Shown here: positions 685 to 14,518 of the stretch, one piece after another
Layout of the letters: each line of letters opens with the position of its first letter
Numbering within the stretch: position 1 is the stretch's first letter
Origin: Escherichia phage slur16
DNA length: 64,000 bases
Direction: 5' to 3' (one strand)
Sequence record: NC_028248.1
Position numbers and translations under genes: made by a program
The notes under the pieces: generated by a model
Database searches by the model: none
Told to the model about the DNA's origin: nothing
The model's input: only the letters and a program-made list of their open reading frames with translations

Positions 685-813
685 CACACAATTAGCTGCC
701 CGGTTAAAGTGCTGGAAGCGCACCTATAACACATCTTTCAACTAAATTTCCCACCACCACAATCACTTACCTTCCACACATGACTGTTTGCTTGTTTAGT
801 GAGCAGTCATGCC

Positions 814-841
814 TTGACATTCTTGCCTATCCTGATAAAAT
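814..841 (+). promoter_or_regulatory. sigma70-like promoter (TTGACA-N16-TAAAAT) with no ORF downstream
   Basis: TTGACA at 814-819, TAAAAT at 836-841; followed by hairpin CCGAgtaatTCGG plus T-rich run (~860-885) and a GC-rich ORF-free stretch. Confidence 0.3.
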
Positions 842-1036
842 TAAGTTCTTCTCTTTTCTTTTACCGAGTAATTCGGGTTTTCTGTTCTCTTCGGTTTGAA
901 GGGGTATGGAGATACACCTGAGTGAACAGGGTGAACAACCGAACCATTGGCTATGGCATTAGCATGGCGAAGCGGACGGGTGACGAAAGAGGGGCCGGAG
1001 GACACCAGTCACTGCCATATGATATATGGGTGATAA

Positions 1037-1596
1037 CCTGAAGAGTCTGAATAAGTGTTTAAGTACCAGTCAGAGGAAAAGGTGAATGGTAGCCGAAGGG
1101 GGAGGGGGGTTTCTTGTATCTTTAATTTGTATATTATGTATACACTTGTAAACCAATCTCATCTGAATCTGTTTACCACACAAAGCGGATAGAGACAAAT
1201 ATCACCTATTAAACTTGAATTATTTATAGAAAATACCACAACACCACTTAAGTCTTTGATTTTACACACAAATCCTACAGATATTCAACCTCCATATTTA
1301 ACATACTTGTAACATATTCCATACTCTACCTGTCTGATCAATCTACCCAACCACATCCTTCATATTTTCCCTGTCTGTACCACCCCTGCCCCGCCGGGAG
1401 TCCCGTCATATCTGGCTTTCCAGCAAATATCACACCCACAAATATCATTGCCTGAAGAGGGTTTCATCCCATAATACATGCCTTACCTGAAGAGCGCTTC
1501 ATACACCACGTAAATTTTTTAATTGACCTGCAATTTTCCCGTCATGACCCCCTGCCCCGCCGGAGAGGTTGGCTTTTCCCACACAGACCTGAAGAG
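1037..1596. repeat. dispersed short repeats: cctgaagag x4 and cccctgccccgccgg x2
   Basis: cctgaagag at 1037, 1451, 1486, 1588; cccctgccccgccgg(g)ag at 1383 and 1548. Confidence 0.5.
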
Positions 1597-2165
1597 TCAG
1601 CCAGAAATATCTGAACAGGCCCAATTCTACCACGATTTTGACCTGACCTACAGGAGTGCTGCCAGGCGGACGAAATGGGAATACTTCTCATTCTTATAAC
1701 AATTCTCAAATATCAAGGCAGTGAGGCAAATTAATAGGCTAGGCCGTTCACACAGTGGCACAACATTTGCAACCTATCTTGTGGGGGTGAATGAGAATAC
1801 CTATCATTGTGAGAATAGTTATCATTACGGGCAATTTAACATAATACCCATTATGCGCACCACTGGCGATACATACAGGGATTGATAACATGGGTTACTG
1901 TTTACGCACATAACAATTATATTTCTTATTATTTGTGGGGGATATAGTTAGCAGCCGATAGATTAGATATTAACCTGCAGACTTCTGACCGTCCAGACGT
2001 CTAAACGCCCACACACCAAGGATTATACATACACTCCTGAATGTAAACAGGGCCGCAAAAATGCTACCATACAAGCTTGTAAATTTTTCATGCAGCACTT
2101 GACAAAGAGGAGGAAAACTTGTCTGACACTTTAGACACAATAGTGACACAATATGACATAATTGA

Positions 2166-3883: not shown

Positions 3884-3912
3884 AATGTTACCCCACCACC
3901 TGGCAGATGTCA
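3884..3912 (-). promoter_or_regulatory. sigma70-like promoter (TTGACA-N17-TAACAT)
   Basis: Minus strand TTGACAtctgccaggtggtggggTAACAT; -35 = plus 3907-3912, -10 = plus 3884-3889. Confidence 0.4.
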
Positions 3913-3938
3913 ACGGTTTTTATAGTTCTTATATGACA

Positions 3939-3969
3939 GGCAGGCCCGGTGATTGTCTCCCCCCCCCCC
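3939..3969 (-). repeat. E-element copy C (inverted) ending in an 11-nt homopolymer tract
   Basis: Plus 3939-3961 is the exact reverse complement of 13530-13552 (23 nt); C run at 3959-3969. Confidence 0.55.
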
Positions 3970-4039
3970 GTCGCCAGGTGCCTGCCGTGTAATAAGTATA
4001 ACAAAAAACAGGACAAAAGCAAGCCCTGTTTTGTAAAGA

Positions 4040-4519: not shown

Positions 4520-4668
4520 TTTTATCGCTCTTTAAAACAAGGTGCCAACCGTTTCTAGTAGATCACTGACCACCAGGACAATACTGATCAGCACATATCT
4601 AACCATAAGGGGAAAGAGCGCCAGCGATCCCGCCACAATCCCCAAGGTAATGATTATCTTTTTCACGG

Positions 4669-6169: not shown

Positions 6170-6223
6170 GATGATTTACCTCTCTTTATTTTCATAATTG
6201 GGGCCTTTTCGGCCCCGCCAGGT

Positions 6224-12304: not shown

Positions 12305-12703
12305 TTATTCGTGGGCGCATGTTACAATGTGCTTTTTATAGCCCAAGTGGTTAGCAAGTGCCGCCAAAAACTCTTCTTCATAGATCCAGCCGTCGGCAGT
12401 GATTCCCATGGCACTTAATGCGCTTTCAAGTGCAGCGTTGGCTTTATCATAACCGTGACCGCTCGCCTTGCCGCCAGTATAACCGTACTTATTGTTCTTG
12501 TTGTCGTGAATCCAAAATACACAGTAATGAGTGTTACCGCTGGCGGCGGCATAATACCGGATCTCAGCTACTTCGTGCAAATTATTGTCATCGTCCAGGC
12601 CCACCAGATTATAGGCCTTGTAGAATCCGCGATCACGGCGGCAGCTTTTAACATCAGAAAAAGAGAAGTCAGCATTATTAAAATTAAAGGTTGTGGTTTT
12701 CAT
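12305..12703 (-). CDS. hypothetical protein (132 aa)
   Basis: Track ORF; AAGAGGA before ATG. Confidence 0.5.
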   Translation of the reverse strand: MKTTTFNFNNADFSFSDVKSCRRDRGFYKAYNLVGLDDDNNLHEVAEIRYYAAASGNTHYCVFWIHDNKNNKYGYTGGKASGHGYDKANAALESALSAMGITADGWIYEEEFLAALANHLGYKKHIVTCAHE

Positions 12704-12735
12704 GATTTTATCCTCTTAGTGTCTTTTGTGCTTTC

Positions 12736-12764
12736 AGTATATTTTGTTTCAGACTGTATGTCAA
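12736..12764 (-). promoter_or_regulatory. sigma70-like promoter (TTGACA-N17-TATACT)
   Basis: Minus strand TTGACAtacagtctgaaacaaaaTATACT. Confidence 0.4.
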
Positions 12765-12767
12765 TAC

Positions 12768-12965
12768 TTATTTTTTATTAAACCAGTGGTTGATCTGACC
12801 TTTTGTCAGGGCGCAACGATTAAGCTGTTGCAGGGTATAGCTATGACCGCGACGAAATTTATAAAGGCCTTGCCCGTTGTTGATGGTTACATCCACCCGG
12901 CAAATCACTTGATTGGTGACCACCTGGCGAGTGTTGCGACGTGCTTTGATTCCGTATGCGTTCAT
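12768..12965 (-). CDS. hypothetical basic protein (65 aa)
   Basis: Track ORF; AGAGAGGATAA before ATG. Confidence 0.35.
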   Translation of the reverse strand: MNAYGIKARRNTRQVVTNQVICRVDVTINNGQGLYKFRRGHSYTLQQLNRCALTKGQINHWFNKK

Positions 12966-13259
12966 GATTTCTTATCCTCTCTGTTAATTAGTGTGGTGTT
13001 GTTCACCTTGCGAGAATAAGAATAACAAGAACTGTCCGAGCTGTCAACCACTATGCAAAATTATTTTTGGGCAAAATTCTCCAGCCGCCGCCCCTGCCAG
13101 GTTAACCACCGTTTTCGTACTCTTCTTTATGTTCCGGTGCTTCCGTTTTAGCCTTCTCGACCAGGGCGATAGCTTCCGTATCATCAATTACTATTTTCCA
13201 GGTGAGTAGCATTACCTTTCATTTTTGTACCTCTTCTGTAGCTGTTCACTTTATAGCGC

Positions 13260-13560
13260 GGACCTGCCAGGTTGGCCCCGCCAGGTCCCGACAGTGGGCG
13301 CACCTGGTTATAATTTTTTTTTTGAAAGGTGTTGACAGCGGCCCCGCCAGGTGGCACAATATACCTATCGAAAGGACGGCAGGCACCGGTGACGGGGGAG
13401 ACAACCACCGGAGATGGGCGCTGCGTAAAATGAGAACGGTTATCATTATCATTTAAAAATTTATGCAAAAAATCCTTGCTTTCTTTGTCCTGTGTGATAC
13501 TATAATAACAAGCCGGGGCAACAGGGGCCGGGAGACAATCACCGGGCCTGCCCGTTATTC
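13260..13560 (+). promoter_or_regulatory. promoter-like cluster with ccaggt boxes and two direct E-element copies
   Basis: ggccccgccaggt exact at 13274-13286 and 13340-13352; TTATAAT at 13308-13314; TTGACA at 13333-13338; TATAAT at 13501-13506; E cores at 13394-13411 and 13530-13552. Confidence 0.4.
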
Positions 13561-13699
13561 TGCAAACGAGAATGATTATCATTCAAAATTCTAAATGAGA
13601 ACTCCTCGCATTTAATAAATTTAATTAGCATGCTAATTACCCTCCGTAACAATTTCCTATAAAACAGTATCCCATAAAATATTCCCATATAGAAATTTT

Positions 13700-13890
13700 A
13701 AAAATCCATTTCTGAAAACGAAAAATCGATTTCGTCCCCAAAAATTTCAGGTCGAGATCCGGAACGATTTCCAGAAAATCCGATTTAGAAAACGAAAAAC
13801 AGATCGAGTACTGAGAAATTTATCGAGAAAAATTTTCAGAAAATCCAAGCCATGAAATGAAAAGTAGATCGAGTACTGGAAAAATTGTAC
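13700..13890. repeat. degenerate tandem repeats (~3 copies, period ~65 bp)
   Basis: agaaaatccgatttagaaaacgaaaaacagatcgagtactgagaaa vs agaaaatccaagccatgaaatgaaaagtagatcgagtactggaaaa; aaaatcc box also at ~14045 and ~14132; inverted repeat atcaggag/ctcctgat at 14124-14158. Confidence 0.5.
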
Positions 13891-14185
13891 CGCAACCCAC
13901 TGATAGTGATGGGTTTTCCGTCATAAATCACTAAGAGTGAGTGGAGAAAGGTATGGTGGAGAGGTGTGTATGTGTGGGAAATCTGTAATGGTGGCCTGAA
14001 ATATGGTGCAAACGGCTAGATAGATTGGCACAATTTTCCGCGCCTGTGTTGAAAAAATCCATTTCAGTTTTCGATCCATTTTCTGATTTTCTAAGAATTT
14101 TAAAATATCTATGTGTTCAAAATATCAGGAGAAAATCCATTTTAGAAATTCTCCTGATTTCTGGCAACTTGGCAATTTAAAAATA

Positions 14186-14518
14186 TCAGGTGCCCAGTTT
14201 GTTCTTTCCTTTATATAAACGCAAGGGTATAGTTTTTGTAACAGTCCACCTTCCTACACCTTCCCAGTTCCAGTTGTAGGCATGGTACCCGGTTACGCAT
14301 GCACTGCTAGAGTGGTCATAGGCATAAGAGAACGCTATACGCACCAGGTGGGGCCAGTCCTTCCATGGTTGTGGTCCGTAAGCTTTTCTCCAACACCGAC
14401 ACAAACTAAATGTCTCAAGAATAGGTAGGATAACAAATCCATACACCGCCACCAGAATAGCCAGCGCAATGATTGTCAGGAATACATACCCTGCAGTTGA
14501 AACGATGATCTCTGTCAT
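14186..14518 (-). CDS. hypothetical membrane protein (110 aa)
   Basis: Long N-terminal hydrophobic segment. Confidence 0.45.
   Translation of the reverse strand: MTEIIVSTAGYVFLTIIALAILVAVYGFVILPILETFSLCRCWRKAYGPQPWKDWPHLVRIAFSYAYDHSSSACVTGYHAYNWNWEGVGRWTVTKTIPLRLYKGKNKLGT

Follow-up and report, generated by a model that had tools for sequence, protein, structure and literature searches.

A gene-free region in an rV5-like phage

The window analysed here, 64 kb of Escherichia phage slur12 (genus Vequintavirus, rV5-like), carries at positions 12966-14185 a stretch of 1.2 kb without genes, which we call the hub. The initial annotation had regarded this stretch as non-coding, and this view holds: no ORF of the hub gave a Pfam match, gene calling by PGAP assigned nothing across about 1.35 kb of the hub region, and the small ORFs annotated there differ between records and lie on either strand. 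A conserved start, looked for in every frame across the conserved element, was not found in other genera. Two individual frames were considered as genes and rejected. For a 92-aa minus-strand ORF, the PHROG match merely mirrors annotated copies of ultra-conserved DNA, no ribosome-binding site lies at the usual distance, and the frame is not kept in other genera. A plus-strand frame (RETxTxPARYSANEND) is open in most genera and lacks a conserved start; a 1-nt indel breaks it in phage anhysbys, and it stops early in the relative L016. Judging from these sequence properties, we assign the hub as non-coding. The published map of rV5 carries a box labelled "non-coding", which is not discussed in the text (PMC3606486). 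In the literature we found no description of the hub or of Fur boxes in rV5-like or phAPEC8-like phages, and no report on a transcriptome, an origin or Fur for these phages. The features are listed below by their positions in the window, with the strand where one applies; the last two lie outside the hub.

13019-13047, minus strand: sigma-70 promoter, TTGACA-17-TATTCT with TG, 10/12 matches
13088-13352, plus strand: cluster of the G/C-rich motif CCyGCCAGGT (13088, 13258, 13272, 13338), the last copy filling the P_A spacer
13280-13323, plus strand: G/C hairpin and ten-T run, terminator-like in the computed fold, directly upstream of P_A
13332-13360, plus strand: promoter P_A, TTGACA-17-CACAAT with upstream TG, conserved in 8/9 relatives
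13379-13424, plus strand: G/C-rich hairpin E_A, core GAGACAACCACC at 13398-13409
13429-13453: Fur box O_A, AATGAGAACGGTTATCATT, with a second, overlapping register; the top-scoring site of the window at 27.9 bits
13476-13506, plus strand: promoter P_B, -35 TTGCTT (13476-13481), 16 nt, TG-a-TACTAT (13498-13503)
13516-13553, plus strand: hairpin E_B, core GGGAGACAATCACCGG at 13530-13545, fold z = -3.0
13565-13583 and 13594-13612: Fur boxes O1 and O2, spaced 29 bp
13622-13654, plus strand: 18-bp palindrome TAATTAGCATGCTAATTA and an overlapping weak promoter candidate, TTAGCA-17-AACAAT, unchanged in nine relatives
13683-13886, plus strand: three direct A/T-rich iterons, AGAAAATCC .. GAAAAC .. GATCGAGTAC, 96% identity in relatives
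13887-14044: variable G/T-rich spacer, 74% identity, with an alternating purine-pyrimidine run and a weak hairpin (13894-13918)
14045-14123: block with iteron-like boxes in both orientations (families D5 and D10; inverted pairs I3, I8 and I22)
14124-14158: strong 10-bp hairpin ATCAGGAGAA/TTCTCCTGAT
3890-4025, minus strand: cassette E_C, E core at 3946-3961
1674-1826: three further Fur-type boxes (1674, 1790, 1808) in a second non-coding region

Conservation in related phages

In the alignment of nine Vequintavirus genomes, the core of the hub (13330-13886) keeps 95-98% identity, and the flanks and neighbouring coding sequence keep 65-80%; purifying selection acts on the hub core at the DNA level. 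Farther to the right, positions 14045-14110 are almost unchanged, within a block (14045-14123) that averages 84% identity. In distant genera, blastn finds only the segment of E_B and the Fur boxes, nearly always in unannotated DNA, and the layout of the hub was found in six Vequintavirinae genera and in Phapecoctavirus. This shared layout consists of tandem plus-strand sigma-70 promoters, a G/C-rich hairpin with the invariant loop GAGACAAnCACC, one to four palindromes phased by 29 bp, and A/T-rich iterons. The iterons are exactly three per hub, of about 65-75 bp, in the six Vequintavirinae genera; different repeats lie at this place in Phapecoctavirus, and on the plus strand the repeats are rich in A in Vequintavirinae but in T in Phapecoctavirus. 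Other genera also have a second ultra-conserved RNA-like element (X) of about 90 nt with its own promoter.

The initial annotation had proposed a hub at which regulators bind and had asked for a check of the repeats in related genomes. The repeats are kept there, so that the loss named in advance as evidence against the proposal was not seen, and the sequence comparison favours the proposal. The hub, previously undescribed, reads as a cis-acting control region that is shared by rV5-like and phAPEC8-like phages. We also searched for a source outside these phages. A bacterial host is not indicated: blastn against E. coli genomes gave nothing useful, and the only match in a scan of 185,579 bacterial genomes was a Phapecoctavirus fragment binned in a MAG. 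A plasmid source was likewise rejected, as the sole match is a Vequintavirus genome that was entered as a plasmid and lacks a replicon type. The pseudo-ToxI anti-abortive-infection locus of phiTE (Certrevirus) was considered as a counterpart and set aside; it sits in the tRNA/terminase region, outside the hub.

Promoters and terminators

The plus-strand promoter boxes noticed earlier appear to be of genuine sigma-70 type, with positions conserved across genera. TTGACA (13332-13337) is the -35 of P_A, a good promoter, and TATAAT (13501-13506) is present as an alternative -10 of P_B. The box TTATAAT (13308-13314) is not a promoter box. It starts the T-run (13314-13323) behind the G/C hairpin (13280-13308), and most relatives have TTATGAT instead. 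All genera carry three plus-strand sigma-70 promoters, at -201 to -230 (P_up, the relative position of P_A), -54 to -60 and +67 to +135, and the sequence between their hexamers diverges across genera; P_B, for example, keeps its -10 and the first three letters (TTG) of its -35, and its spacer varies. P_B and the promoter that precedes E_C are paralogues. The candidate TTAGCA-17-AACAAT of slur12 matches at 8/12 positions and is located where other genera have the promoter P2. On the minus strand, the promoter at 13047-13019 is the equivalent of rV5 P195B and is predicted to drive the downstream early genes; the records of rV5 and ECML-10 list it as a promoter.

A hairpin with a T-run at 13894-13918 had been suggested to end a plus-strand transcript; its fold is weak (z = -0.97) and it lies in a variable stretch. 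A far stronger fold is that at 14124-14158 (minus strand, -20.1 kcal/mol, z = -5.05; plus strand, -13.4 kcal/mol, z = -3.1), whose stem is partly kept in relatives by a paired A-to-G and T-to-C change. This hairpin is the probable terminator of the minus-strand gene upstream, and plus-strand transcripts of the hub may stop at it as well. The hub had further been described as antisense to the early genes, which the sequence does not support. The plus-strand unit is bounded by the hairpins at 13280-13323 and 14124-14158, and overlap with any gene is not required.

The E hairpins

The initial annotation had listed two direct copies of the E-element GGGAGACAAYCACCGG; both are present, at 13396 and 13530, but a third exact copy, at 3946-3961 on the minus strand outside the hub, had been overlooked. 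The three matches compare with 0.05 expected in the window, and no further copy was found in an additional 45 kb of the genome, so that three are present in about 110 kb scanned. E_B is the copy conserved in every genus. In the E_C cassette, a terminator hairpin overlapping the promoter TTGCTT-16-TATACT is followed by the E hairpin, by a second promoter (TTGACA..CTGCCAGGTGG..TAACAT) and by a gene; the terminator hairpin (ACAGGGC..GTCCTGT with T6) encloses the -35 of the first promoter. This cassette is conserved in Vequintavirus, and inverted second copies occur in Phapecoctavirus and Certrevirus. Together with its promoter, the E hairpin forms a dispersed cassette, one copy of which lies outside the hub. 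Since that copy stands in gene orientation, we regard E as a general promoter-proximal module and not as an origin-specific part.

Several searches at the RNA level gave negative results. No intrinsic terminator (hairpin and U-run) was found 3' of E_A, E_B or E_C, the hub matched no Rfam family at gathering or permissive thresholds, and a tRNA search of the hub found none. Alignments of the closing stem show some G-U pairs and exchanges of A-U for G-C. RNAalifold did not recover the stems from the E orthologues, and in terms of duplex energy the matched 5' and 3' flanks paired no better than mismatched ones (772/5000 permutations); compensatory change is thus not demonstrated.

Host-type Fur boxes

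The palindromes of the hub agree with the Fur consensus GATAATGATWATCATTATC at 15-16 of 19 positions, against a chance expectation of 0.015-0.28 per window. As 19-bp inverted repeats close to GATAATGATAATCATTATC, they match at 16/19 positions at 13432 (expected 0.015) and at 15/19 at 13568 (expected 0.28), and the 19-mer at 13432, in O_A, likewise agrees with the classical Fur consensus at 16/19. We built a matrix solely from 19 phage sites and applied it to host DNA. In 50 kb of E. coli, its six best matches all fell in the promoter regions of fepA-fes, fepD-entS and fepB-entC, and in another 50 kb the top match was the ryhB promoter box, at 26.6 bits against 11.2 for the next; column-permuted palindromic matrices reproduced these rankings in 1/1000 and 23/1000 trials. 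All four of these promoter regions are Fur-regulated. The site AATGAGAATGATTATCATT of phages anhysbys and KpS8 is one position off the ryhB promoter box. On the basis of these comparisons, we identify the hub palindromes as predicted host Fur boxes.

The boxes keep a fixed 29-bp phase (-3, +26, +55 and +84/93), with one to four per hub, and slur12 has six Fur-type sites when the second non-coding region is included. A single hub box is found in PVP-SE1, Hena1 and the IMG/VR relatives L016 and L020, and other repeats stand in place of the Fur boxes in the lineage of L048 and L051. Because the palindromes vary on one side without compensation, they fit DNA sites rather than RNA stems. The slur12 boxes do not overlap a scored promoter; in Phapecoctavirus and PBES02, promoter-like pairs arise from the halves of the boxes (TTCTCA and TATCAT or AATAAT). 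A Fur-repressed minus-strand promoter across O1 (TTGAAT-18-CAGAAT) was considered and dropped, as its -35 is not conserved in Phapecoctavirus.

The hub boxes resemble those of ryhB, fepA-fes, fepD-entS, fepB-entC and iucA in being 19-bp palindromes of the same sequence type, and resemble strongly Fur-regulated host promoters in their arrangement in arrays. They differ from host promoters in their occurrence in a virulent phage, in their strict 29-bp phase and in the absence of an evident -35/-10 beneath the slur12 boxes, which lie between one promoter and the next. The hub consensus TGAGAAT-N-ATTCTCA is a symmetric departure from TGATAAT-N-ATTATCA.

Iterons

The tandem array of about three units of some 65 bp in the initial annotation is confirmed: the units lie at 13683-13747, 13757-13821 and 13822-13886, are spaced by 74 and 65 bp, and are 62-74% identical to each other. 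A+T content is 60-76% across 13550-13900, and within the window exact GATCGAGTAC occurs in the hub only. Exactly three direct iterons with 63-78 bp spacing are found in slur12, PVP-SE1, PBES02, KpS8, Hena1 and Kashira, and the sub-motifs AAAAATTTTTTC and GAAAAAC are common to these six phages, with GATCGAG in all but Hena1. Five AAAATCC boxes had also been reported; the boxes are real, but their number is six, all on the plus strand (13469, 13701, 13775, 13840, 14054 and 14132). The motif occurs 16 times in the window, which is not above chance, and 6/16 occurrences are inside the 1.2 kb hub.

A possible transcription-activated origin

The hub is the most strongly conserved non-coding DNA of the region and is common to two subfamilies, and for these reasons it is the obvious candidate for an origin or a master cis-regulatory site. 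The reading we favour, tentatively and with somewhat less than even confidence, is that of an origin of replication activated by transcription and gated by Fur; transcription, Fur binding and origin activity are steps that we infer from the arrangement of the features. Host RNA polymerase would start at P_A and P_B, and at a weak third candidate at the P2 position, all of them firing against the direction of the surrounding genes, and would produce a short G/C-rich hairpin RNA (E_A, E_B). It would then cross the array of predicted high-affinity Fur sites and enter the A/T-rich stretch with its exactly three iterons of about 65-75 bp, where transcription would melt or prime the DNA in the manner of the T7 primary origin, T4 oriF/oriG and lambda ori. 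A phage protein would recognise the iterons. Fur placed between promoter and iterons, or over P2, would tie read-through to iron, and the boxes would soak up Fur as genome copies multiply.

Origins that need transcription from an adjacent promoter into A/T-rich DNA include the T7 primary origin (1.1A, 1.1B), T4 oriF/oriG, lambda ori and ColE1. Like those of T7, T4 and lambda, the hub has tandem intergenic promoters that would fire into an A/T-rich stretch, with repeats, taken as protein-binding, beside A/T-rich DNA at one site per genome; lambda ori has four dyad iterons, an A/T-rich region and activation from pR, and T4 oriF/oriG a promoter and an unwinding element. Direct repeats do lie beside an A/T-rich region at one place of the genome, P_up, P_B and P2 are, as sequence features, aimed into them, and the unit is limited by the hairpin with T10 on the left and the strong hairpin on the right. 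The hub differs in that its promoters are of host sigma-70 type, not of phage-polymerase or MotA type, its iterons are long (65-75 bp) and exactly three, host Fur sites stand between promoter and repeats, and no initiator-like gene lies beside it. The plus-strand small genes beside the hub in other genera encode DUF7170 or PHROGs of unknown function and are absent from Vequintavirus. No DnaA or IHF consensus site was found in the hub, and GATC is not enriched.

Strand composition gives this reading no support, as GC skew is about -0.07 to the left and -0.13 to the right of the hub, opposite to the expectation for an origin; gene strand is the same on both sides. In rV5, skew analysis found no origin, and skew changes only where the direction of transcription changes (PMC3606486). 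In favour of the reading, the same paper reports a T7-gp4-like primase-helicase domain for this phage group, together with a DNA polymerase of family A. slur12 encodes the iron-dependent ribonucleotide reductases NrdAB and NrdDG, and because these enzymes need iron, read-through at low iron, with iron-loaded Fur repressing, would bring no obvious benefit. The replacement of the Fur boxes in the lineage of L048 and L051 was also counted against an origin of this kind.

Alternative explanations

The product of the hub may instead be RNA, which we consider rather unlikely. The E hairpins would then be a promoter-proximal RNA family of three copies with a shared 12-nt loop, acting in trans as a regulatory RNA or protein decoy, or in cis as a nut/put-like antitermination or stabilising signal; a longer transcript spanning the iterons may also function, with Fur setting the amount or length of RNA. 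Every E copy lies directly downstream of a conserved sigma-70 promoter, and a predicted promoter of its own is what a small regulatory RNA gene should have. No variation is seen in the loop core GAGACAAnCACC-N5-TGC, the differing flanks still fold at -15 to -25 kcal/mol, the closing stem tolerates the exchanges described above, and fold z is about -3 for slur12 E_B, PBES02 and anhysbys, but only -1.1 to -1.4 for several other orthologues. In two subfamilies, copies some 10 kb from one another occur in either orientation, which recalls nutL/nutR, and element X offers a parallel in other genera. As with lambda nutL/nutR boxB and HK022 putL/putR, a short hairpin RNA with conserved loop and variable stems would arise just downstream of early promoters, from oppositely pointing copies; unlike them, E comes without a known N-like protein or boxA, and its hub copies lead into no genes. 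The lack of an Rfam match and of a terminator after E, the RNAalifold and flank-permutation results, the one-sided palindrome changes that suit DNA sites and the switch from A-rich to T-rich repeats between Vequintavirinae and Phapecoctavirus all speak against an RNA product, which would also leave the fixed three iterons with their conserved sub-motifs unexplained. Quite unlikely, in our judgement, is that the phased boxes serve as a sponge, titrating Fur at hundreds of genome copies so that iron uptake, suf, nrdHIEF and RyhB are derepressed to the benefit of the phage; the iterons could sequester another protein, of host or phage. Titration of Fur by multicopy Fur boxes is well established in the laboratory as the FURTA assay, the hub boxes equal that of ryhB in quality, one to four of them stand at fixed phase in each hub with more in the second non-coding region, most of those in slur12 overlap no recognisable promoter, and the phage-encoded reductases depend on iron. 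However, the cellular Fur pool is several thousand molecules, beside which the phage sites per cell may be few. Some hubs have a single box and those of one lineage none, and titration would account neither for the promoters and iterons nor for the constant placement of the first box behind E_B.

Some other cis-acting site, namely pac, a signal for DNA injection or partition, or a functionless pile-up of PeSL-type cassettes, is very unlikely. The pac sites of SPP1 and P1 are resembled by repeats with A-tracts at a single place, terminator-promoter composites flank E_C and P_A, and the left edge of the hub shows indels and one deletion between repeats. A physical genome end or terminal repeat was nevertheless rejected, since the terminal repeats of the related Klebsiella phage KPP-1, 514 bp in length, are 8.3 kb from the element. 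In the slur12 record the terminase genes are at about 48-50 kb and the hub at about 128 kb, which also counts against this alternative. Against junk speak the 550 bp of near-invariant sequence and a layout kept across subfamilies. PeSLs number dozens per genome, whereas E has three copies in the approximately 110 kb scanned. The PeSLs of T4-like phages (PMC2839356, PMC4122927) combine a stem-loop terminator with a near-consensus sigma-70 promoter, a composite also found in E_C and P_A, and like the E cassettes they are paralogous, lie amid small early ORFs and are tied to indels between close relatives. Their stem-loops lack the 12-nt loop that is invariant across subfamilies in the downstream hairpin of E, they belong to a different phage family, and the many dispersed copies bordering variable ORFs that typify them were not seen, the window holding three copies of E.

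Implications for phage biology

That Vequintavirinae and Phapecoctavirus wired host Fur into an ultra-conserved non-coding hub, whether as an iron-gated origin or hub RNA or as a Fur sponge, is a possibility that we place on the doubtful side. If true, lytic phages would have a hitherto unrecognised means of sensing or manipulating the metal homeostasis of the host via DNA sites alone. That a virulent phage carries predicted host Fur boxes of top quality suggests that infection is coupled to iron, which is a key variable in the gut and at infection sites, and such coupling could affect phage performance in iron-limited hosts. The rV5-like and phAPEC8-like groups consist of coliphages with a broad host range, which are frequent in the infant gut and find wide use in phage therapy and biocontrol collections, and for their engineering the hub is an element that must be kept or can safely be avoided.

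Repeats at the left edge of the hub

The left 250 bp of the hub hold the minus-strand promoter and the remnant of a small ORF that is annotated in other records. The CCyGCCAGGT motif clustered at this side also fills the spacer of a minus-strand promoter at 3898-3913. The 13-mer GGCCCCGCCAGGT, reported earlier at 13274, 13340 and 6211, has exact copies at all three positions; their strand also carries copies with two mismatches at 13090 and 13260, and the minus strand carries one at 14343. These six matches compare with 0.6 expected, and 0/100 shuffles reach six. Among relatives, indels and one repeat-mediated deletion are seen at this edge. In phage JLBYU08 the DNA between the two hub 13-mers is exactly deleted, and we regard these two exact copies as a putative recombination substrate.

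Organization and conservation of the hub

The hub (12966-14185) is flanked on both sides by genes whose coding strand is the minus strand. Over 12700-14500, the sequence agrees at 100% identity with that of Escherichia phage slur12 (LN881735.1, an rV5-like Vequintavirus), and more than 100 related records match it at 80-94% identity. The genome map of rV5 bears a box labelled "non-coding", which is not discussed in the text, and the skew analysis of that phage failed to place an origin (PMC3606486). The Pfam search of the hub ORFs gave zero matches, small-ORF annotation differs between records, on either strand, and the PGAP annotation of one related record leaves about 1.35 kb empty at the hub. 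No start codon in any frame is kept in other genera across the conserved element; small-peptide coding was rejected as a candidate on this basis, and the hub is non-coding, as the initial annotation proposed. Strong support exists for its being a selected unit, for its regulator-binding character, which had also been suggested, and for the view that it has predicted + strand promoters and boundaries of its own.

The repeats first noticed in the hub (the 13-mer, two E-elements and three tandem units of about 65 bp) are all in place and, like its other noted motifs except the short boxes taken singly, exceed chance. TTGACA and TATAAT boxes were located as described, and the AAAATCC boxes are present where reported but number six, not five. 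TTATAAT (13308-13314), read initially as promoter-like, is not conserved and opens the T-run after a G/C hairpin; this hairpin and T-run form a + strand terminator-like site directly upstream of P_A, the first hub promoter. The hairpin at 13894-13918, proposed as a + strand terminator, is weak (z = -0.97) and lies within a variable stretch; a strong hairpin is found instead at 14124-14158, with -20.1 kcal/mol and z = -5.05 on the minus strand and z = -3.1 on the plus strand.

Across ten aligned Vequintavirus hubs, 13330-13886 keeps 95-98% identity to slur12; the left hub part, a variable G/T-rich spacer and the neighbouring gene ends show 65-80% identity with indels. Distant-mode blastn detected the segment of E_B (the second hub E copy) and the palindromes, at 72-88% identity, in Phapecoctavirus, which belongs to another subfamily than the slur12 group, and in Mydovirus, Seunavirus, Certrevirus, Henunavirus and a Serratia phage; nearly all of these hits lie in unannotated DNA. 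These genera share the following anatomy.

Features shared across genera, running against the gene flow (positions relative to the E core)
-201 to -230, + strand: upstream sigma-70 promoter, in all these genera
-54 to -60, + strand: promoter P_B, with TTG and often an extended -10 conserved, the spacer not
Downstream of P_B, + strand: E_B hairpin, invariant core GAGACAAnCACC-N5-TGC
Fixed at -3, +26, +55 and +84/93: between one and four palindromes of 19 bp, with the consensus AATGAGAAT-N-ATTCTCATT
After the palindromes, + strand: third promoter P2, in most genera
Unit end, spaced 63-78 bp: exactly three direct A/T-rich iterons

The palindromes follow a 29-bp phase. At the P2 position, slur12 has a palindrome of 18 bp that is invariant and overlaps a weak candidate promoter. 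The iterons have AAAAATTTTTTC, GAAAAAC and GATCGAG in common; the GATC is missing from those of Hena1, and in Phapecoctavirus different repeats occupy this position. Alternating purine-pyrimidine runs, which are prone to Z-DNA, adjoin the iterons or P2 (window 13965-13980, GTGTGTATGTGTG; PVP-SE1 locus L007 1592-1608, CGCGTGTGCGTGTGTG).

The upstream promoter is directed at the other hub E copy (E_A) in slur12 and, in most other genera, at element X, an ultra-conserved RNA-like element of about 90 nt, whose positions in three loci from relatives are as follows.

Element X
L007 1348-1428
L009 1330-1415
L004 2390-2470

A 29-mer within X, CCACCCCACGGCGnAAAGGCGGGGCTAAC, is identical in 16 loci of two subfamilies. 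A long stem is predicted for X, Rfam gave no match to it, and it was not found in the slur12 window or in the Hena1 loci fetched.

JLBYU08 has a clean deletion, equivalent to window 13285-13340, that runs exactly from one to the other of the two exact copies of the 13-mer GGCCCCGCCAGGT; these repeats therefore do recombine. The deletion takes out the T-run and the -35 of P_A, so that P_A is dispensable, at least in this phage. At 6200-6223, between two minus-strand ORFs, the third exact 13-mer shares sequence with a G/C hairpin, GGGGCC-ttttc-GGCCCC, and is probably a terminator part, not a hub-type site.

Host Fur sites

The palindromes match the published Fur consensus GATAATGATAATCATTATC at 15-16 of 19 positions, and, as judged from sequence, they are Fur boxes. 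To test this identity independently, a weight matrix was built from 19 distinct phage sites only, and E. coli K-12 DNA was scanned with it. At 590-640 kb, its top six sites all fall in three divergent promoter regions, fepA-fes, fepD-entS and fepB-entC, which belong to the enterobactin cluster; at 3555-3605 kb, the ryhB promoter box, a single position away from AATGAGAATGATTATCATT of anhysbys and KpS8, ranks first by 15 bits. All these promoters are Fur-regulated. Palindromic matrices with permuted columns equalled these results in 1 of 1000 trials (enterobactin regions) and 23 of 1000 (ryhB). Within the window, the only sites retrieved by the phage matrix were three in the hub and, at 1674, 1790 and 1808, three in a second non-coding region, and an operator-consensus mismatch scan of a further 45 kb of the genome gave no Fur-type site. 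There is strong support for these putative host Fur sites as an integral component of the hub. Fur boxes in phages of this kind did not come up in our literature search, in which the sole related mention was of the sitABCD genes of temperate lambdoid phages.

At 4646-4664, GGTAATGATTATCTTTTTC shares 16 of 19 positions with the classical Fur consensus, yet it is outside the best-scoring sites of the phage matrix. In two IMG/VR contigs of a Vequintavirus-like lineage (L048 and L051; 136-139 kb), P_B, E_B and the iterons are kept, and the Fur-box slot between E_B and the iterons holds repeats of another kind, namely ACTATAAATAA and sites of the AGTTACTnACGGTnATT type; the hub input module therefore looks exchangeable.

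E-element cassette

The E-element is a dispersed cassette. Its third exact copy (E_C; 3946-3961, minus strand) stands in the order promoter TTGCTT-16-TATACT, E hairpin, second promoter and gene. A terminator hairpin with T-run encloses the -35 of the first promoter, of which P_B is a paralogue, and the spacer of the second bears CTGCCAGGTGG, as does P_A. In Phapecoctavirus and Certrevirus, a second E copy lies inverted at a distance of about 10 kb from the hub, and in Certrevirus a Fur box follows this copy too. As terminator-promoter composites these cassettes resemble the PeSL cassettes of T4-like phages (PMC4122927), but the hub phage has only three copies, with an invariant loop.

Possible roles of the hub

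We tentatively favour a transcription-activated origin of replication, because several tandem promoters aim at a unique A/T-rich iteron array, DNA-level conservation is extreme, the phage group has a T7-like replisome, and no rival candidate for the origin is known. Against this, the GC-skew step at the hub runs the wrong way, DnaA or IHF sites are absent from the hub, no initiator gene adjoins it, and E is also present outside it. An RNA locus, acting in trans or, in the manner of nut and put sites, in cis, appears rather unlikely. Every E copy folds well (-15 to -25 kcal/mol), but z-scores are about -3 for three copies and only -1.1 to -1.4 for others. G-U pairs occur in the closing stem, and lineages differ there by an A-U to G-C exchange; RNAalifold did not recover the stems, and matched 5'/3' flanks paired no better than mismatched ones, so that compensatory evolution of E is not demonstrated. 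In the palindromes, one side varies and the other does not compensate, as would fit DNA bound by protein. The + strand of the repeats, A-rich in Vequintavirinae and T-rich in Phapecoctavirus, also points to a DNA-level function.

A sponge for Fur or another host factor is improbable in our estimation. The iron-dependent ribonucleotide reductases of the phage offer a rationale for an iron link, the sign of regulation being not obvious. Still more doubtful is another cis site or cassette debris. The origin and these other readings are not mutually exclusive. Failed leads were Rfam and tRNA searches of the hub, host or plasmid homology, the phiTE pseudo-ToxI locus as a counterpart, and a terminal-repeat location.

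Related records and a second non-coding region

CP057073.1, a record filed as a plasmid from an E. coli isolate of cattle, is a complete circular Vequintavirus genome of 137.6 kb, which suggests phage carriage in culture or contamination. In the slur12 record, E_C is at position 1043 and the hub (with E_B at 13530-13545 of the window) at about 128 kb; the window therefore runs past the ends of the linear record as deposited, in keeping with circular permutation of the genome.

Window 735-1970 is a second large gene-free region, with the repeats CCTGAAGAG (four copies), AAATATCAC (three) and CCCTGCCCCGCCGG (two). One of its three Fur-type boxes overlaps a minus-strand promoter-like pair, TTAAAT-16-TATTCT, and the region coincides with a skew change and with a transcription-unit boundary of the rV5 paper.
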